The notes below the pieces were generated by a model. It ran no database searches. It was not told the DNA's origin and saw only the letters and a program-made list of their open reading frames with translations. A program made the position numbers and the translations under genes. 64,000 nucleotides of DNA from Candidatus Moraniibacteriota bacterium. Lineage in GTDB: Bacteria > Patescibacteriota > Minisyncoccia > Moranbacterales > GCA-2747515. Below, piece after piece: positions 3,963 through 62,086 of this stretch; position 1 is the first letter of the stretch, and every line of letters begins with the position of its first letter. The DNA is taken from NCBI GenBank assembly GCA_046116545.1, contig CP175956.1, forward strand, positions 705,734 to 769,733. Direction: 5' to 3'.

Positions 3963-4034
3963 GTCATTCCGTAAAATAATATTTATTGCAGAACGAAGTG
4001 ATGCATTATAAATATATTTGTACGGAATCTGTAC
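3963..4034. repeat. hairpin repeat element, GTCATT family, subfamily A (paralog at 55345-55414)
   Basis: GTCATTCCGTAAAAT ... TTTGTACGGAATCTGTAC. Both termini are shared with the copy at 55345; the centre has diverged. Confidence 0.6.
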
Positions 4035-21222: not shown

Positions 21223-24200
21223 CTATACAACAATGCTGATAAGCTTTCCTTGTACAAAAATTACTTTTCTTACTTCTTTCCCGTCTATGTGTTTTTGTAC
21301 ATTTTCACTTGCTAATGCTTTTTCTGTTGCTTCTTCTTCTGTTATTCCTGTTGCTACACTTATTTTATCTCGTACCTTACCATTTACTTGTACAACTAGT
21401 TCTATTTCATCATCTACCAAATACTTTTCATCATATTCTGGCCAACTTTCTTCTATCAAAAATGTATTATTGCCCATCTCACTCCATAACTCTTGTGTTA
21501 AGTGTGGTGCAAAAGGTGACAGTACTTTTAAGAATTTACCAAAGTCTTCACTAGAAATACTTTTTTCAGTCTCTATTTCATTTGAAAGCATCATCATTGC
21601 ACTTATTGCTGTGTTGTATTTCATGTCTTCTATATCTTCTCCTACTTTTTTGATTGTTTTGTTTAATGTTCCTTTTAGCTTTTTAGATGTTTCAGCTTCT
21701 GTCCATTCACTATGATAAATCTTCCAAATCCTCTCCAAAAACTTTCTCGGACCAACAAGTCCATCAGTACTCCAAGCAACTGACGCATCAAATGGTCCCA
21801 TGAACATTTCATATACTCTGAATGTATCAGAGCCAAACCTATCGATTATATCATCAGGATTTATAACATTACCCCAACGCTTACTCATCTTACGTCCATC
21901 CTCTGCCATGATAAGTCCAACTGTCTGTAATTTTGAAAACGGTTCGTCATATGAAACAACTCCTATGTCATATAAGAACTTATGCCAAAATCGTGCATAA
22001 ATAAGATGTCGTGTAGCATGTTCTGCTCCACCTACATAAAAATCAACTGGTGACCAATATTTTTCTTTATCTTTATCAATTAATGCACTATCATTTTTTG
22101 GATCAATATACCTCAAGTAATACCAACTAGACCCAGCCCATTGTGGCATAGTATTTGTCTCACGCTTAGCCGGACCACTACACTCAGGACACTCAGTATT
22201 CACCCAGTCGTCAATTGCAGCAAGTGGTGATTCACCTGTTCCCGTTGGCTCATAGCTTTCCACCTCTGGAAGTATTAACGGTAGTTCATCTTCTGGCACA
22301 GTAACAACTCCACACTTCTCACAATGAATTAAAGGGATAGGTTCTCCCCAATACCTCTGACGACTAAACACCCAATCACGAAGCTTATAACTAGTAGTCA
22401 TTTCACCACCAGCCTTCTGCGTAATTGCTTCTTTAGCATCTTCTGAATCCATGCCATCAAATTCTCCAGAATTAACCATGATACCCGTTCCTGTAAAAAC
22501 TTTATCATTATTTATTTTATCCCACATAAATCTTTGACCTCCTGCTACAATTGCACTCTCCACTTCTTTCGCTGTCATCCATACGATATCATGTTTTACT
22601 TTTTCTTCATCACTTACTACATTTTGTTCATCACTTTCTAATTCAAAATAAAATGATTCAAAATGTGCAAATCTGTTAACATTTTTTGGATTATGAAAAA
22701 ACTTACTATGTGATTTACCTAAATTTTTAATCAATTTTAAATTTTTATAACCAGTCTCTTCTAAAATCTCAGTTCGTGCTGCTTCTTGGGCAGTTTGACC
22801 TTCTTCAATTCCTCCTGTAATAAATGTAATCCAAGCTACTTTCTTCCACTTTAATGTTAAATATTTATCTTCTTCCCAATGTTTCACAATTGCGGTAATT
22901 GTATCTCTTTCTATAAATTCTAAATCTTTTTTTGGTGCACTACTTTTTGTTTTATCTATAAATAATGGTTCTACAACTTCTTGCATATCAACGTCATATT
23001 TCTGAGCAAACTCAAAATCACGCTCATCATGAGCAGGTACTGCCATAATTGCACCAGTTCCATAATCAGCCAAAACATAATCTGCAATGAAGATTGGAAT
23101 TTCTTCGCCATTAACTGGATTTACTGCCATCACACCCTCAAGCCTTACACCTGTCTTTTCTTTTCCTTCAGCAGTTCGCTCAATCTCAGTTTTTGCTTGT
23201 GTTTGCTTTTGATACTCTGCAACTTCACTTCTATTTACAATCTCTAATTGTTCAAGTAACCCATGCTCAGGAGCAAGTACCATATAAGTAGCACCATATA
23301 AAGTATCTGGACGTGTTGTAAATACTTTGATGGATTTACCATTATCACTTTTACCTCCAACAGAACTCAGAGACAAACTATGACTGAAATCTAAAATTTC
23401 AACTATAACCTCTGGGAGTTCTTGTTTTATCAGCTTACTACCAAAATGCCCTTTATTATCAAATTTCAAAAATTTTGCATCTAATCCTTTTGCATTTTTC
23501 TCTCCATGTTCAAATGGCACCCAATCATCATCATGCGAATGAAGCACAACAAAATCATCACAATGTTGTTTAATTTTTTCAAAATCATATCCATCTTCAG
23601 TATAAAATCCATGTGTATTTTCTTTTGTATGTTTATCATCAATTTTTGCATAATTAGCAGCAACCAAAATAACTTTTTTGACTTTAAAATCTTTTGGCTG
23701 TTTTTCTAACCATCTCAAAATTGCAACACCTCCACGAGAATGTCCTATTAAAACTGTATTTTTGTTTGGCTTCAATTCGTCCAATTGAGCTAACCATTCA
23801 TCCATGTATGGATTTTCAGCATTCTTCAGAACTGGTGCCACAAATAAAATACCTTTTTTATTCATTTCTTCAGCAAGCCATAAATACCACTTTTCTTGTG
23901 GGTTTGTGTCCTTTCCATGCATCAAAATAACGTTTTCTTCTTGTTCTACGACTTTTTTTTGCAATAAACTTAAAATTTCTGGCACTTCTTTAACATTTTC
24001 ATCCTCACTCATGTGTCCATATTCTTTTAATATCTGAATATTAGCAATATCACCAAAATTTTCAATATAATACTCTCTTATCTCATCTGTAATCCAACCA
24101 TCCTTTTCACCAAAAATACAATTCATGTATGTAACATTTTGCTTTACCATTTCAATGTCTAAATTTCTATCTTGATAATTTTTAAAAATAATTAGTTCTT

Positions 24201-25263
24201 CTTTTGTTAATTTTTCTTTGAATTGTTCAAAATATAAACTATCTGGTTTTTCAAAACCAACGGGAGCGACAAGAACAAGGTTTTTTATCTTATATTTTTC
24301 TGCTAATTTCATCGCCAAAAGTCCACCCATACTATGTCCAACAACAGAAAAATCTTGAAGATTATTTTTTGCAATTTTTTCTTCTATAAAATTATACCAC
24401 TCATCAAAATCTGGCGTATCCGTATTTGGTGCATCAAACGCAAATACTCTGTGACCATCTTTTTCTAAAGAATCTTTTAACCACGGAATAAAATCAGTTT
24501 TTGAGCTACTTTCCCAACCATGTAAAATTAAAACATTTTCTTTTAATTCTTCATTCTTAATTCTAAATTCTATATTTGCTCCCTCACTTCGTCCTATCCA
24601 ATTCCTCTGTGATTCTTTGATGCTTTCTTGCCAATCAAGTTTATCTATGTCAGCGAGCATCCTATCTGCATAATCCGTAATTTTTATAACCCATTGTGGA
24701 ATTTTCTTTTTCTCAATCGGTGTATCACATCTCTCACAACAACCATTCTCTAAATCTTCATTTGCAAGTCCCGTTTTGCACGATGGGCACCAGTTAATCG
24801 GTTCATTTGATTGAAATATTAATCCCTTTTTATACATCTGAATAAAAGTCCACTGAGTCCATTTATAAAACTCTGGGTCTGTAGTCGAAATCTCTCGCTC
24901 CCAATCATAATTAAGAGAAATCTTTTCTAATTGTTTTTTAAAGGTTGCAATATTTTTATCCGTTCCTATACGTGGATGTACTTTATTTTTAAGTGCATAC
25001 TGTTCAGCAGGAAGTCCAAAAGCATCCCACCCCATTGGATGAAGTACATTGAAATTTTGCATTTTTTTATACCGAGAGATAATATCTGTTGCAATATAAC
25101 CCTTAGGATGACCCACATGGAGTCCTTCTCCTGATGGATATGGAAACATATCAAGAATATAAAATTTCTCTTTATCAGAGTCCTCTGTCGTTTTATAGAC
25201 ATTTGACTCATTCCATTTTTTACGCCATTTATCCTCAATTTCTTTGTGCTTATAGATTTTCAT
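21223..25263 (-). CDS. leuS: leucyl-tRNA synthetase with inserted tandem alpha/beta-hydrolase domains and a Nudix-like domain
   Basis: HIGH (HVGHPKGY) and KMSKS (KMSKRWGN) motifs; bacterial LeuRS blocks NWIGRSEGA and TTRPDT...AVPAHDERDFEFAQKY. Residues ~236-645 hold two YdeN/RBBP9-type serine-hydrolase domains (GHSMGG, GHSRGG). Residues ~781-920 hold a Nudix-like domain (WITFITGGIEEGQTAQEAARTEILEETGY). Confidence 0.9.
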   Translation of the reverse strand: MKIYKHKEIEDKWRKKWNESNVYKTTEDSDKEKFYILDMFPYPSGEGLHVGHPKGYIATDIISRYKKMQNFNVLHPMGWDAFGLPAEQYALKNKVHPRIGTDKNIATFKKQLEKISLNYDWEREISTTDPEFYKWTQWTFIQMYKKGLIFQSNEPINWCPSCKTGLANEDLENGCCERCDTPIEKKKIPQWVIKITDYADRMLADIDKLDWQESIKESQRNWIGRSEGANIEFRIKNEELKENVLILHGWESSSKTDFIPWLKDSLEKDGHRVFAFDAPNTDTPDFDEWYNFIEEKIAKNNLQDFSVVGHSMGGLLAMKLAEKYKIKNLVLVAPVGFEKPDSLYFEQFKEKLTKEELIIFKNYQDRNLDIEMVKQNVTYMNCIFGEKDGWITDEIREYYIENFGDIANIQILKEYGHMSEDENVKEVPEILSLLQKKVVEQEENVILMHGKDTNPQEKWYLWLAEEMNKKGILFVAPVLKNAENPYMDEWLAQLDELKPNKNTVLIGHSRGGVAILRWLEKQPKDFKVKKVILVAANYAKIDDKHTKENTHGFYTEDGYDFEKIKQHCDDFVVLHSHDDDWVPFEHGEKNAKGLDAKFLKFDNKGHFGSKLIKQELPEVIVEILDFSHSLSLSSVGGKSDNGKSIKVFTTRPDTLYGATYMVLAPEHGLLEQLEIVNRSEVAEYQKQTQAKTEIERTAEGKEKTGVRLEGVMAVNPVNGEEIPIFIADYVLADYGTGAIMAVPAHDERDFEFAQKYDVDMQEVVEPLFIDKTKSSAPKKDLEFIERDTITAIVKHWEEDKYLTLKWKKVAWITFITGGIEEGQTAQEAARTEILEETGYKNLKLIKNLGKSHSKFFHNPKNVNRFAHFESFYFELESDEQNVVSDEEKVKHDIVWMTAKEVESAIVAGGQRFMWDKINNDKVFTGTGIMVNSGEFDGMDSEDAKEAITQKAGGEMTTSYKLRDWVFSRQRYWGEPIPLIHCEKCGVVTVPEDELPLILPEVESYEPTGTGESPLAAIDDWVNTECPECSGPAKRETNTMPQWAGSSWYYLRYIDPKNDSALIDKDKEKYWSPVDFYVGGAEHATRHLIYARFWHKFLYDIGVVSYDEPFSKLQTVGLIMAEDGRKMSKRWGNVINPDDIIDRFGSDTFRVYEMFMGPFDASVAWSTDGLVGPRKFLERIWKIYHSEWTEAETSKKLKGTLNKTIKKVGEDIEDMKYNTAISAMMMLSNEIETEKSISSEDFGKFLKVLSPFAPHLTQELWSEMGNNTFLIEESWPEYDEKYLVDDEIELVVQVNGKVRDKISVATGITEEEATEKALASENVQKHIDGKEVRKVIFVQGKLISIVV

Positions 25264-30667: not shown

Positions 30668-30812
30668 AATAATTCACCTCCTGCCATAATTTTTGTTTTT
30701 ATTTGTACTACTAACTTTTATATTTAATACTGTATCATGCAAAAACACTAATAACAACAACTAGCCACATTAAAAATAAGTCATTGACTTATAGTATTTT
30801 TTCTATCAAAAA

Positions 30813-30843
30813 GGTCCAACCTAGGGTCAACCCTAGGTTGGAC
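30813..30843. repeat. palindromic element GGTCCAACCTAGGGTCAACCCTAGGTTGGAC
   Basis: Near-perfect 31-bp palindrome just downstream of the sortase gene. Confidence 0.7.
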
Positions 30844-30859
30844 ATTGTCTCATTAATAC

Positions 30860-31873: not shown

Positions 31874-31923
31874 ATTCTAATATTATTTATCAGCCTATTT
31901 ATAATATTCCCATTTACCCCCAT

Positions 31924-31953
31924 GTCATTCCTGCGAAGGCAGGAATCTTACGG
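31924..31953. repeat. short hairpin member of the GTCATT family
   Basis: GTCATTCCTGCGAAGGCAGGAATCTTACGG: 8-bp stem with a GAAG loop. Confidence 0.5.
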
Positions 31954-32127: not shown

Positions 32128-32334
32128 ATGCAAGCTACCTCAAAAAAACCACCTCATTACATTTGTCCAAATAATTGTGAGGAAGTTTATTTTTATCAAG
32201 ATGGACTACTTGAGGCGACTCGAACTTTTGATGAAGATGGTACAGACATGGCTGATGAAACATTTGATTTCTCAGCAAAAACAGAAATGAAATGTTTTCA
32301 CTGTAACTCTGTTGCCATTATCAATAAATCCTGA
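32128..32334 (+). CDS. small zinc-ribbon protein (hypothetical)
   Basis: GGAGG RBS 8 nt before the ATG; CPNNC...CFHC pairs; a terminator follows. Confidence 0.5.
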   Translation: MQATSKKPPHYICPNNCEEVYFYQDGLLEATRTFDEDGTDMADETFDFSAKTEMKCFHCNSVAIINKS

Positions 32335-32417: not shown

Positions 32418-32519
32418 GTCATTGCGAGTGTCGCCATCTTTTGTGCCACAAGCGAAGCAATCTCATTAAGTTTAAAAATATCTTAACGAGATTGCTTCGT
32501 CGTACCTCCTCGCAATGAC
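32418..32519. repeat. MITE-like nested-hairpin element (GTCATTGCGAG...CTCGCAATGAC), family copy C
   Basis: 11-12 bp terminal inverted repeat and inner stem gaagcaatctc/gagattgcttc. The 3' 33 nt are identical to the copy at 58527-58559 except for one base. Confidence 0.7.
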
Positions 32520-32533
32520 CCAAAAGACAAAAA

Positions 32534-32565
32534 GGTCCAACCTAAGATCGACCATAGGTTGGACC
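32534..32565. repeat. palindromic element GGTCCAACCTAAGATCGACCATAGGTTGGACC
   Basis: Copy of the GGTCCAAC family, 14 nt from the MITE-like element. Confidence 0.7.
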
Positions 32566-32585
32566 TTGTCCAGCTAAAATAAAAC

Positions 32586-35884: not shown

Positions 35885-35908
35885 GTCATACCTGCACAGG
35901 CAGGTATC
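35885..35908. repeat. short hairpin member of the GTCAT family
   Basis: GTCATACCTGCACAGGCAGGTATC, paralogous to the copy at 31924. Confidence 0.45.
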
Positions 35909-38166: not shown

Positions 38167-38463
38167 AGTTATTTTTTATTAATGATTAACTATTTATATC
38201 TAGATTATACAAAACTTTATTTTTTTATGCAATATTAAAACCAAAGATTCCTGCCAAAATAATTATTAATATATCACATCTTAATTTTGCTCACCAATCA
38301 TATTGCCAAAACCTATTTTCTGTGTTATGATACATCGTTATGTTATTATAAATTTACATTGTTAAATCCAAGCTGAAAAATGTCTAGATATGAGATAGAT
38401 AATGTATAATGAAAATAACTATTATTTAGTAAGTAATCTTGATCTACTTATAGTCTCCCCTAA

Positions 38464-38495
38464 GGTCTAACCTAGGGTCGACCCTAGGTTAGACC
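38464..38495. repeat. perfect 32-bp palindrome GGTCTAACCTAGGGTCGACCCTAGGTTAGACC ending 10 nt before the 38506 ATG
   Basis: The sequence equals its own reverse complement; central GTCGAC flanked by CCTAGG. It sits at the minus-to-plus strand-switch region. Confidence 0.75.
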
Positions 38496-38505
38496 TTTAT
38501 ATAAA

Positions 38506-50965: not shown

Positions 50966-51014
50966 GTCATTACGAGAAATCGCTACAACAACGACATATT
51001 CTCGTTAGAATGAC
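50966..51014. repeat. short hairpin member of the GTCATT family (copy E)
   Basis: GTCATTACGAGAA...TTCTCGTTAGAATGAC. Confidence 0.55.
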
Positions 51015-52014: not shown

Positions 52015-52089
52015 TAGAAAAAGTATATCACAAATATCATATTTTTTCCATGCTTTAATGTGTAACCACTCACACTTCTAAACAAATGC

Positions 52090-52235
52090 GTCTTTGCGAG
52101 CAACTGTAACATTATATATGCCAAAGCGAAGCAATCTTAGCTTTATATATAATGTAAACTTTCAGAGGGATGATTATTCTGGACAGATAGCTTACTTCGC
52201 AAGACATGTTGATTATTACTTCTGCTCGCAAAGAC
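52090..52235. repeat. MITE-like nested-hairpin element, family copy F
   Basis: GTCTTTGCGAGCA...TGCTCGCAAAGAC: 13-bp terminal inverted repeat; inner aagcgaagcaatct is shared with copy C. Confidence 0.65.
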
Positions 52236-52342
52236 ATATTTGAGGTGTGAGGGGTTACTTTGATGTATACTTAAAAATCTAACAAAAAAGATTCAAACTG
52301 AAATTAATCCCAGTTTGAATCTTTCAAAAATCATTAAGCCAA

Positions 52343-55344: not shown

Positions 55345-55414
55345 GTCATTTCGTAAAATATATTTTCTCTGTGAGGTATGAACAGATAGAAAATCATTTG
55401 TACGGAATCTATAC
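55345..55414. repeat. hairpin repeat element, GTCATT family, subfamily A copy G
   Basis: GTCATTTCGTAAAAT...TTTGTACGGAATCTATAC; termini shared with 3963-4034. Confidence 0.6.
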
Positions 55415-56169: not shown

Positions 56170-57039
56170 TTAAAACTCATCAACAAAAAAATCCCGATAC
56201 CAAAGTTGCAAATTCTTTTTTGTTTTTTCTAATTCCTCGATTGATTCAAAAATACCAAAAACTGTTGGACCTTTTCCTGATATGGATGTAACTCGTGCGC
56301 CAAATGCCTGCATTGCATTTTTTATTTCTCCTATTACATAACATTGCTCTTGTGCAACAAATGCAAAATCATTATATACATATTGCACGATATCATCCAA
56401 TGTATGATGACTTTCTTTCATACTAAGTGTAATATTTTTTCTGTCATCATCACTCATAAACCATTGTCTTTGGTCTAACTGTCCGTATGCCCATGGCGTA
56501 CCAATTTCTTCTTTTGGATTTACTACAAGTATTGACAATTGAGGGAAATCAAAAAGGCTCTCCACATCTTCTCCAGTTCCACTTACATAAGCAGCGAATG
56601 CATCTTGAAGAAAAAATGGAATGTCCTTACCTACTTCAGATGCTATTTTAACAAGTTCTTCATTACTAAGTTTATCTTCAAAATACTCATTAAGCGCCAA
56701 AAGCACACTTGCGCCATCAGAACTGCCACCACCCAAACCGGCCAACATCGGGATTCTTTTTGTAATTATCATTTTCACACCAACTCGCCTCCCAATTTTA
56801 GCAAAATACTTCTGTGCAATTTTCCAACAAATATTTTGCTCATTTGTTGGCACATCAGGATTATCACACTCAATCGAAATACTCTCACTATCCTCATCAA
56901 ACTCAATAACCACAGTATCATACAAGTTTTGAGATTTCACCATAATAGACCGAATCTCATGAAATCCATCAGGATATTTCTTTACAACCTCCAAACAAAG
57001 ATTAAGTTTCGCCGGCGCCGTCATTTGAATCTTTTTCAT
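56170..57039 (-). CDS. ispE: 4-diphosphocytidyl-2-C-methyl-D-erythritol kinase
   Basis: GHMP kinase motifs PAKLNL and PMLAGLGGGSSDGAS. Confidence 0.85.
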   Translation of the reverse strand: MKKIQMTAPAKLNLCLEVVKKYPDGFHEIRSIMVKSQNLYDTVVIEFDEDSESISIECDNPDVPTNEQNICWKIAQKYFAKIGRRVGVKMIITKRIPMLAGLGGGSSDGASVLLALNEYFEDKLSNEELVKIASEVGKDIPFFLQDAFAAYVSGTGEDVESLFDFPQLSILVVNPKEEIGTPWAYGQLDQRQWFMSDDDRKNITLSMKESHHTLDDIVQYVYNDFAFVAQEQCYVIGEIKNAMQAFGARVTSISGKGPTVFGIFESIEELEKTKKNLQLWYRDFFVDEF

Positions 57040-58467: not shown

Positions 58468-58559
58468 GTCTTTGCGAGGAGCGTTTAGCAACGTGGCAAT
58501 CTCAATAAGCACATCAGATACCTTACAGAGATTGCTTCGTCGTACCTCCTCGCAAAGAC
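58468..58559. repeat. MITE-like nested-hairpin element, family copy H
   Basis: GTCTTTGCGAGGA...TCCTCGCAAAGAC, inserted between ispF and ispD. The 3' 33 nt match copy C. Confidence 0.7.
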
Positions 58560-58560
58560 A

Positions 58561-59253
58561 CTACAGTTGGCTCAATATCACTTCAGCAAGTGCTAGGTCA
58601 ATTGGTGTAGTTACTTTAAAATTATTATCAGATGCTTCCACAATAACAACAGCTCCTCCAAGCTCCTCAACAAGTGACACATCATCAGTTCCTAAAAAAT
58701 CTTTTTTATCTGCCCTATCAAAAGCATTTAATGCTAGCTCCAATTGTATTGCTTGTGGTGTCTGCATGTTCCAAAGTTCACTTCTATCTATTACACCCTT
58801 CGATACATTATCTTCATTAACTTTTCTTATTGTATCCTTTGTTTTATGTGCCACTACTGCTGCTCCACCATTTCTTGCTGCTTCTGCTACACATTTTATT
58901 TCTTCAGCACTTACAAATGGATTCGCTCCATTATGAAATAACACAACAGTATCAGAATCATCATAATTATTAGCAACACATGTAACTCCATTATGTCCTG
59001 AATTTTGACGTTCCTTTCCTCCTGCGATAATATGTGATACTTTTTCAAATTCAAATTCATCTATAAGTTCCTGCATATCAGTAATTTCATTTTCTTTTGC
59101 CACAATAACAATCTCATCAATGTCCTCAGACCTCTCAAAATTATCTATGGTATAAAAAATAAGCGGTTTCCCGCCCAATTCCAAAAACACTTTATTTTTA
59201 TTGGCTCCCATTCTCTTTCCCATGCCAGATGCAAGGATAATCGCAATATTCAT
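58561..59253 (-). CDS. ispD: 2-C-methyl-D-erythritol 4-phosphate cytidylyltransferase
   Basis: N-terminal ILASGMGKRMG nucleotidyltransferase motif. Confidence 0.85.
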   Translation of the reverse strand: MNIAIILASGMGKRMGANKNKVFLELGGKPLIFYTIDNFERSEDIDEIVIVAKENEITDMQELIDEFEFEKVSHIIAGGKERQNSGHNGVTCVANNYDDSDTVVLFHNGANPFVSAEEIKCVAEAARNGGAAVVAHKTKDTIRKVNEDNVSKGVIDRSELWNMQTPQAIQLELALNAFDRADKKDFLGTDDVSLVEELGGAVVIVEASDNNFKVTTPIDLALAEVILSQL

Positions 59254-61879: not shown

Positions 61880-62086
61880 TTAGATTTTTCTCTTGGCAAT
61901 GACATGTTGAAATTCTTTTTGCTCTTTCTCCACTATGCTTCTCGCACAATCTGTACACATACTAAAACATTCTTGCATAAAAATTTTCTCACAAGAAGGA
62001 CAAAGTACTTCCCTAATCTTTTTTGTCTCTCTAACAATTTGCATAACATGCTCCATACAATATATTTTCCTGCGATAAAACAGCAC
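61880..62086 (-). CDS. small Cys-rich zinc-finger protein, paralog A
   Basis: VLCPSCEK...CFSMCTDC. Its 3' end and downstream 40 nt are paralogous to the neighbouring gene. Confidence 0.4.
   Translation of the reverse strand: MLFYRRKIYCMEHVMQIVRETKKIREVLCPSCEKIFMQECFSMCTDCARSIVEKEQKEFQHVIAKRKI

Follow-up and report, generated by a model that had tools for sequence, protein, structure and literature searches.

The eight short intergenic repeats of the window (the whole 64-kb stretch of DNA analysed here) are probably members of the superfamily of CGTC-tagged REPs, or Ssn-related motifs (SRM/NTS), which arrived at their present positions by intergenic insertion and stand there as orphan or non-autonomous copies. 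The family membership of the window units is demonstrated by their sequence and structure, and it bears out the core of the original prediction, which had described a dispersed family of nested-hairpin repeats. The motif GTCWTTVCGAG occurs seven times over both strands against an expectation of 0.06, and none of 100 dinucleotide-preserving shuffles reaches this count, so that chance is excluded. The coordinates proposed for the eight elements were all confirmed in the sequence, and the elements are composed as follows.

32418..32519, no strand assigned: element A, an inverted doublet with a left module (32418-32464; GTCATTGCGAG, a 24-nt P2 and CGAAGCAATCTC), a spacer (32465-32487) and a right module (32488-32519; GTCATTGCGAGGAGGTACGACGAAGCAATCTC on the reverse strand); tags CGTC/GGTC.
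58468..58559, no strand assigned: element B, an inverted doublet with GTCTTT/AAAGAC ends, a left module (58468-58503; variant ...GTGGCAATCTC) and a right module (58528-58559); tags CGTC/TGTC.
52090..52235, no strand assigned: element C, an enlarged degenerate doublet with ends GTCTTTGCGAGC / GCTCGCAAAGAC; tags CGTC/TGTC.
52062..52258: an outer 14-nt inverted repeat around C, with GTAACCACTCACAC at 52062-52075 and GTGTGAGGGGTTAC at 52245-52258.
50966..51014, no strand assigned: element D, a minimal 49-nt doublet, GTCATTACGAGAA / TTCTCGT-TAG-AATGAC; tags TGTC/TGTC.
3963..4029, plus strand: element E, a long-loop single unit made of TGTC, ATTCCGTA, a 47-nt loop, TACGGAAT and C.
55345..55409, plus strand: element F, an E-type copy with one stem mismatch, GTCATTTCGTA...GTACGGAATC; tag TGTC.
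31924..31947, plus strand: element G, a short CGTC-1 / NTS-like single unit made of TGTC, ATTCCTGC, GAAG, GCAGGAAT and C.
35885..35908, plus strand: element H, a short single unit made of TGTC, ATACCTGC, ACAG, GCAGGTAT and C.

Elements A to D are doublets and E to H are single units. The module of A and B consists, in this order, of an unpaired YGTC, a 5-bp stem strand ATTGC, GA, a variable hairpin (P2), GAA, the complementary strand GCAAT and a C, and the resulting two-stem module runs GTCATTGCGAG...GAAGCAATC. It is found singly or as two inverted copies with their tags outward, and the spacing of paired arms lies mostly between 50 and 150 nt. What had been taken for terminal inverted repeats is in fact a pair of self-folding modules in inverted orientation, of a kind that is also found alone. 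Elements A, B and C fold into long nested hairpins (-43.3, -44.5 and -41.7 kcal/mol, respectively), whereas D folds more weakly (-11 to -17 kcal/mol) and retains only the first 13 nt or so of each arm. The left module of C is still recognisable and its right module has decayed; the outer inverted repeat around C, complementary at 13 of 14 positions, is absent from relatives. A covariance model (R1) made solely from copies in other genomes and phage contigs recovers the right arms of A (42.1 bits, E=7e-9) and B (33.9 bits, E=1e-6) far better than their left arms (23.3 bits and E=6e-4 for A, E=0.07 for B), and both elements are hence heterodimers of two unlike modules. On this model alone C (E=0.56, left arm only), G (1.7) and D (2.2) do not reach significance, and two further matches, at 57019 and 61881, fall within ORFs and were dismissed as chance. 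The near-identity that had been claimed for the 3' ends of A and B survives in a slightly shorter form, with a single difference over 32 nt (32488-32519 versus 58528-58559) and two differences over the 33 nt originally proposed.

The structure of the module was further characterized on 374 instances from other genomes, which were collected with search patterns that demanded GTC and left the preceding base free. This base is C in 199 of them and T in 148, and the tail that follows the stem is CCA in 145, CTC in 107 and CCC in 37, its first C being constant. All arms of A and B, as well as E to H, have GTC before the palindrome and C after it, and both features are invariant or nearly so in the module alignment (A1), partly through the design of the search. 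The ATTGC/GCAAT stem is uninformative on covariation because the same patterns fixed it, and it is P2 that carries the signal. The 374 instances hold 176 distinct P2 segments, in which hairpin closure is far commoner than in shuffled sequences (2.26 closing pairs observed versus 0.50). Within the 13-nt class of P2, four of the five pairs vary on both sides (18 cells), a result matched by none of 500 shuffles, and structures with the 3' partners shifted by one to three columns give a far lower covariation score. A common G-A/A-G tandem is, moreover, swapped for Watson-Crick pairs in some copies. The P2 hairpin is under pairing constraint.

The single units had been assigned to the same family as the doublets, and this assignment holds in part: E to H are related to A to D at superfamily level only, through the tag, the stem started by A-T and the C after the stem, and significant sequence similarity between the two sets is lacking. 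E and F have GTCATT(C/T)CGTAAAAT and ATTTGTACGGAATCT in common, and E was recovered by a relaxed scan for tag, stem and C. G and H differ by a compensated stem change (ATTCC/GGAAT versus ATACC/GGTAT), and they are the two occurrences in the window of GTC followed by a perfect 8-bp stem with a 4-nt loop, for which 0.095 would be expected. A more naive scan, for GTC and any 7-bp stem within 160 nt, performed at chance level (14.7 expected) and was abandoned.

The genomic setting of the elements is that of an AT-rich genome, with a G+C content of 28-36% along the window (about 32% on average), genes mostly on the minus strand and products such as SecA, a SecDF-PPIase fusion, a sortase, RlmN, CapA and a 1346-aa LeuRS; no tRNA was detected in the window. 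The intergenic position proposed for all eight elements holds, with A located between convergent genes and the other seven between co-directional ones. B adjoins the ORF at 58561-59253, beginning 1 nt past its stop codon. The forward motif of E to H lies on the plus strand, antisense to the surrounding genes and opposite the G-rich strand; four single units are too few for a reading of orientation.

The CGTC-tagged REPs, to which these units are assigned here, were described by Di Nocera, De Gregorio and Rocco (2013, BMC Genomics 14:522; PMC3733652) and include the Neisseria dRS3 and the Rickettsia RPE-4 and RPE-6 repeats. They are defined by an unpaired CGTC (or TGTC/CCTC), a stem of 8-9 bp started by A-T, a loop of 4-5 nt and a short, unpaired tail with consensus CCA (PMC3733652). 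Like them, the window units have a CGTC/TGTC tag and a short tail with initial C, frequently form inverted pairs with outward tags that are often heterodimers, occupy intergenic spacers between co-directional or convergent genes and belong to a family spread over many phyla, and G and H share with CGTC-1 the 8-bp stem and the 4-nt loop. The suggestion that the elements might be a REP family hence pointed to the right class. The differences are nonetheless several. The stem of A to D is in two parts (5-bp ATTGC/GCAAT, a GA/GAA internal loop and a variable second hairpin), the loops of E and F reach 47-50 nt, the stems of B and C begin with T (those of A, D, E and F begin with AT), the tail is CTC or CTT rather than CCA, and the host, a member of the Patescibacteria with 32% G+C, belongs to a group outside the coverage of the 2013 survey. 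That survey itself says that bulged CGTC REPs may have been missed, and it mentions a Bradyrhizobium "CGTC-1 with unusual loops" (PMC3733652), which may or may not equal the two-stem module.

The second point of comparison is provided by the Neisseria NTS and the SRM. With these the window units share an oriented hairpin in which GTC precedes the palindrome and C follows it, the motif-ssn-motif layout seen elsewhere, and an abundance of hundreds of copies in some genomes. The published SRM pattern, HGTCWYN(0-2)YYVSBRHN(0-5)WNVSBRGN(0-2)RNCYNB, yields nonetheless zero hits across the window; tried one by one, A, B, G and H fail it, whereas the Neisseria NTS and an Azospirillum unit, used as positive controls, pass. 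The pattern calls for simple stems rich in G+C. The two-stem module is not described by Chenal et al. 2025 (PMC11893778), whose main text makes no mention of Bacteroidota, Patescibacteria, cyanobacteria or the 2013 REP survey. A text search of the literature with GTCATTGCGAG and its complement returned PCR primers only. Among other hairpin-bearing systems, integron attC sites, which are also nested hairpins among co-oriented genes, were rejected on account of the missing GTTRRRY/RYYYAAC core and the housekeeping nature of the neighbouring genes, and a tRNA-like minihelix with a CCA tail was set aside because the discriminator base plus CCA is missing from the tail and the window yielded no tRNA.

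The evidence that ties these motifs to a specific enzyme comes from the sequences enclosed by paired arms. Seventeen arm pairs spaced 250-5000 nt apart were available, and among those more than 250 nt apart four fall at 367-393 nt; three of these four enclose an ORF of 96-99 aa with a Pfam GIY-YIG domain. An HMM built from the arm-enclosed ORFs found 15 of them in 2.8 Mb of module-centred loci, most directly beside arms, and a GIY-YIG ORF is present in 12 of 118 loci with the exact 30-mer of the window. In the reverse test, which took 50 IMG/VR loci by protein similarity alone and left 45 testable ORFs, an inverted repeat of at least 14 nt flanks 32 of the 45 ssn-like ORFs but not one of the 77 further ORFs of those loci (Fisher p=3e-19). 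The motif-ssn-motif layout was recovered for the ATTGC type (arms around a GIY-YIG gene in loci L281, L311, L185, L369, L370, L419 and L420) and for seven other stem types, and the type of hairpin follows the protein lineage, with a mean identity of 72% between proteins of the same stem type versus 54% between those of different types; shared host ancestry may add to this match. A four-helix-bundle cargo, of the kind found in 23S rRNA intervening sequences, was discarded, the only recurrent ORF between arms being GIY-YIG. Organisms with ssn genes in this type of setting include the following.

Algoriphagus kandeliae (gene at 1201-1500 of locus L419) and a Prolixibacteraceae MAG: ssn gene with ATTGC-type arms.
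Neisseria gonorrhoeae: ssn gene with dRS3 on either side.
Azospirillum lipoferum 4B: ssn gene with a full CGTC doublet on either side.
Sinorhizobium meliloti: ssn gene with CCTC-tagged doublets on either side.
Novosphingobium aromaticivorans: ssn gene exactly between two arms.

The protein associated with ATTGC-type arms is 45% identical (E=2e-27) to the homologue of SsnA in N. gonorrhoeae, and it belongs, hence, to the Ssn family. Among solved structures, the UPF0213 proteins 1ZG2 and 1YWL come closest to it, and the nuclease family comprises some 2,457 clusters (50% identity, E<=1e-10). Two Tyr residues and one each of Arg, His, Glu and Asn are invariant in the protein alignment (A2), and we take them to be the catalytic positions by analogy with I-TevI. 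The link between GIY-YIG nucleases and these hairpins was already in the literature (Chenal et al. 2025, Nat Commun 16:2388; PMC11893778), in a study that named the family Ssn (cd10448) and showed that SsnA of N. meningitidis binds the 28-nt NTS hairpin (dRS3 included) strictly in single-stranded form and on the forward strand alone. SsnA cuts a few nucleotides upstream of the NTS, requires the three bases before the palindrome (GTC) to cut and the C after it to bind, and ignores double-stranded DNA and RNA (PMC11893778). The enzyme reduces transformation by NTS-bearing DNA, three Ssn homologues cut their own motifs, and the NTS-ssnA-NTS layout has been called IS-like (PMC11893778). The role shown for the enzyme in Neisseria is the trimming of transforming single-stranded DNA (PMC11893778). 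The suggestion that a homing endonuclease recognising GTCATTGCGAG should be sought thus named the right kind of partner, given the small GIY-YIG genes lying between identical arms elsewhere. No GIY-YIG ORF is found within the window, out of a source genome of 1.29 Mb, and the copies there therefore look orphaned or non-autonomous, the latter much as the original prediction had supposed.

The same observations weigh on the label of miniature inverted-repeat element under which the repeats were first proposed. According to this explanation they would be deletion derivatives of an insertion sequence, mobilised in trans by a DDE transposase that binds terminal inverted repeats of 11-13 bp. The elements do resemble bacterial MITEs such as Correia/NEMIS and Nezha in their small size, inverted ends, intergenic location and capacity to fold when transcribed, and their presence or absence among relatives is also in keeping with such an origin. 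Yet inspection of the flanks of A to D revealed no target-site duplication, the arms are autonomous, self-folding hairpin units that are common as singlets, and paired arms most often span 50-150 nt. Furthermore, no long version bearing a DDE gene was seen among the 17 arm pairs, in which the sole recurrent ORF is the GIY-YIG nuclease, and none of 20 ORFs tested in the window (19 larger ones and one of 68 aa) has a transposase domain, in agreement with the earlier statement that the window holds no transposase. A MITE in the usual sense, with target-site duplications and a DDE-type parent, is accordingly the least credible of the explanations considered and can be regarded as highly improbable.

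A closer parallel is offered by REPINs and their RAYT partners, and by the palindrome-associated elements derived from IS200/IS605, in which the doublets would be moved as single-stranded hairpins by a Y1 (HUH) tyrosine transposase. Hairpin doublets together with abundant singlets, an unpaired tag adjacent to the 5' side of the stem, the absence of duplicated target sites and a partner gene of low copy number between its own repeats are all features that the two systems have in common (for the parallel, see PMC3733652). On the other hand, the tag is YGTC and not GTAG, the 2013 survey found neither a tyrosine transposase gene flanked by CGTC repeats nor any associated transposase (PMC3733652), and the gene that lies between the arms encodes a hydrolytic GIY-YIG enzyme instead of a strand-rejoining Y1 HUH transposase. 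Mobilisation by a RAYT is thus very unlikely.

A different type of explanation holds that the repeats act at the RNA level, as mRNA stabilisers, terminators or riboregulators maintained by selection, and that the link to a nuclease is irrelevant in this host. The genomic distribution of the singlets lends it some weight. They are found just downstream of genes, 20 times in convergent spacers versus twice in divergent ones, are sense in 30 cases versus antisense in 15 between co-directional genes, and in phage contigs often stand immediately ahead of a ribosome-binding site; the covariation of P2 is also what a functional RNA would display. Other data point away from it. Neither the window nor 11 loci with canonical copies contain a match that reaches the gathering threshold of any Rfam family, and matches below threshold do not exceed chance level, including a resemblance to the SAH riboswitch (26 bits against a cut-off of 37, E=0.04) that was taken as chance. 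P2 mismatches of the G:T type (7) and of the A:C type (4) give no sign of a constraint on the transcribed strand, SsnA does not bind the RNA form of its motif (PMC11893778), and the four singlets of the window are antisense to the neighbouring genes. Element A sits between two hairpin-plus-T-run structures that were judged by eye to be terminators, and is therefore not needed as one, even if a consensus terminator scan flagged neither of the two; no T-run follows B. The RNA-structural role that had been put forward as an option has no specific evidence in its favour, and we consider an RNA-level function improbable, if less so than either type of transposase-driven element.

That the repeats are inserted DNA is indicated by the comparison with related genomes. 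The gene order DUF5684-CapA-RlmN is conserved in three relatives, whose CapA proteins are 68-79% identical to that of the window. At the site of D, the CapA-RlmN spacer measures 71 nt in the window, D included, versus 8 nt in one relative (L247), while another relative (L248) carries there a different CGTC-type hairpin. At the site of C, about 230 nt that include the element are missing from the DUF5684-CapA spacer of all three relatives. Empty sites, which had been proposed as a check, thus exist at both C and D, and the copies come and go between related genomes. Contigs that encode an identical sortase are all 100% identical to the window, so that they offer no strain-level variation to compare. 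A similar picture emerges in Azospirillum lipoferum 4B, where an entire repeat-ssn-repeat unit lies between sufB and sufC. The unit is absent from A. ramasamyi, A. oryzae (judged by span only), B510 and A. brasilense, the sufB-sufC flanks of Azospirillum genomes lacking it are 90-97% identical, and the three spacers that were read (32-129 nt) are free of repeats. The repeat-ssn-repeat unit of A. lipoferum 4B is therefore an insertion.

The distribution of the module beyond these groups is very broad. In a scan of one genome per species, the 80 matches listed cover at least 11 phyla (Pseudomonadota, Chloroflexota, Desulfobacterota, Bacteroidota, Cyanobacteriota, Patescibacteria, Planctomycetota, Campylobacterota, Bacillota, Zixibacteria and Latescibacterota), which places the two-stem form among the most widely spread small repeats sampled. 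Plasmids of Trichormus, Tolypothrix and further Nostocales carry the 30-nt right arm of A with 100% identity, more than 118 metagenome stretches whose G+C contents range over 30-60% contain the exact 30-mer, and the arm motif is present in more than 120 IMG/VR contigs. The identity of a 30-nt arm across phyla points to horizontal movement or to very tight constraints on recognition.

This distribution also feeds the most serious of the competing explanations, namely, that the window elements are inert relics, acquired horizontally (for instance, from Bacteroidota or cyanobacteria by way of phage or transforming DNA) and now decaying without partner or function. This explanation agrees with the lack of an ssn gene in the window and in 64 kb of loci from the relatives, with the degenerate state of C and D, with an arm identical to copies in unrelated phyla and viral contigs, and with the origin of the named ssn genes that have ATTGC-type arms, all of which are from Bacteroidota and none from Patescibacteria. 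Against it, A and B retain both arms, and their right arms match the 30-mer exactly (A) or at 29 of 30 positions (B); arms so close to canonical in a genome with 32% G+C imply either recent arrival or continuing constraint. The coexistence of eight units of four sub-types within 64 kb, in turn, speaks for repeated activity rather than a single transfer. An origin as functionless debris hence seems unlikely, although it deserves more credit than an RNA-level role.

Under the preferred explanation, in which the repeats are inserted members of the CGTC-tagged REP superfamily, the basic unit would be an oriented single-stranded DNA hairpin with an unpaired YGTC on the 5' side of a stem started by A-T and a C directly on its 3' side, and A to D would each combine two such units, inverted and with tags outward, into a REPIN-like heterodimer doublet. 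Elsewhere, the units would serve as recognition sites for an Ssn of about 95 aa, whose gene typically lies between two units of its own. Judging from the literature, the enzyme would bind the forward strand only when single-stranded and cut a few nucleotides upstream, and an inverted doublet would present only one arm per strand in cleavable orientation. Presumably, an Ssn encoded elsewhere in the genome, or formerly present in it, acts on the window copies, and it might also take part in their spread and multiplication, even if this last step is mechanistically weak. As hydrolases, GIY-YIG enzymes break DNA strands but do not join them, and cutting alone does not account, hence, for the multiplication of copies.

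Since the class has been known from 2013 (dRS3 for longer) and its partner enzyme was reported in 2025, the repeats described here do not open a new category. What is new is a two-stem form of the motif that tolerates A+T and is undetectable by the published SRM pattern, the great breadth of its distribution, a 30-nt arm being identical from phylum to phylum, and its occurrence in a reduced genome of the candidate phyla radiation (Candidatus Moraniibacteriota, Patescibacteria). In practical terms, units of this type, once recognised, account for many spurious short ORFs and broken assemblies. More generally, the empty sites in relatives and the insertion in A. lipoferum 4B bear on the mobility of the motif-ssn-motif unit, a question raised by Chenal et al. 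Here we build on these observations to suggest, if only tentatively, that the two-stem ATTGC module and its ssn gene of about 97 aa might constitute an active minimal selfish element of some 370 nt, which would cross phyla (Bacteroidota, cyanobacteria, Patescibacteria and phages) and shed ORF-less doublets like A and B along the way. We hold this proposal to be possible and somewhat doubtful. Were it true, Ssn would be the mobilising enzyme that has long been missing for the CGTC REPs, and more than a domesticated modulator of transformation.

Among the CGTC-tagged REP hairpins of other genomes, which consist of a YGTC tag, a stem and a C after the stem, four metagenome loci (L252, L320, L329 and L368) carry a sister module, GTC-ATGCT-GAGCGAAGTCGA-AGCAT-C, which adjoins modules of the ATTGC type (the two-stem variant with an ATTGC/GCAAT outer stem) and keeps their frame while its outer stem differs. 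Comparison of the two sequences suggests that the outer stem covaries across sub-families. Modules are also found singly or in larger assemblies. In phage genes, single modules directly precede the ribosome-binding site, as in GTCATTGCGAGGAGCGCAGCGACGAAGCAATCTCAAAAGGAGGAAACCATG (L005, L008, L037 and other IMG/VR contigs), and two Nostocales plasmids carry a solo arm within a larger inverted repeat, AAGTAGGCACGAATAAAC ... GTTT(T/A)TT(A/T)ACGCCCACCTACTT, an arrangement that looks like a cyanobacterial composite repeat. The positions of these arms, of a widely spaced pair in a Patescibacteria contig and of a hairpin in L248, a relative of the source genome, are as follows.

L001 2430-2570 and L002 1350-1490: solo right arm identical to that of element A, an inverted doublet of the window, nested in the larger inverted repeat
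L169 556-1838: two inverted modules, 1283 nt apart, around a 184-aa ORF
L248 6478-6540: CGTC-type hairpin at the CapA-RlmN site, with the sequence GTCATTCCCGC...GGCAGGAATC and a 41-nt insert

Judged by eye, the ORF of L169 resembles a transposase fragment, and this candidate probably represents an insertion between the two units that is unrelated to them. At the CapA-RlmN site, the window holds the minimal doublet D whereas L248 holds a different CGTC-type hairpin, and hence this spacer was either struck independently or turned over.

Beyond these hairpins, the window contains a second repeat family, two small Cys-rich (CxxC...CxxC) ORFs in otherwise non-coding spacers, and two multidomain fusion proteins.

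30811-30846, 32532-32567 and 38462-38497: 36-nt near-perfect palindrome AAGGTCCAACCTAGGGTCGACCCTAGGTTGGACCTT
505-543: sequence related to this palindrome family
32128-32334, plus strand: small Cys-rich ORF
61894-62055, minus strand: small Cys-rich ORF
21223-25263, minus strand: leucyl-tRNA synthetase, 1346 aa
10481-12184, minus strand: SecD/SecF-type protein with an inserted PPIC-type peptidyl-prolyl isomerase domain

With up to three mismatches allowed, the palindrome has six matches in the window against none expected. Two copies lie directly 3' of the stop codons of a sortase gene and a Schlafen-like gene, and the third falls within the spacer 38167-38505; the copies may be terminators, though their sequence is common to them. 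The Cys-rich ORF at 32128-32334 is preceded by a good ribosome-binding site and followed by a terminator of its own; it gave no Pfam match. The synthetase is an unusual fusion, its editing domain being surrounded by insertions of two alpha/beta-hydrolase-like regions (residues ~244-620) and a NUDIX domain (~810-900), and the isomerase domain is inserted near the N-terminus of the SecD/SecF-type protein.

Element G, a single short unit, overlaps a promoter-like arrangement directly upstream of the sortase gene.

31901-31928, minus strand: -35-like ATGACA, from the tag end (AATGACA) of element G, with TATTAT 16 nt downstream

The ...AATGACA ends of the CGTC-type repeats could serve as promoter -35 boxes.
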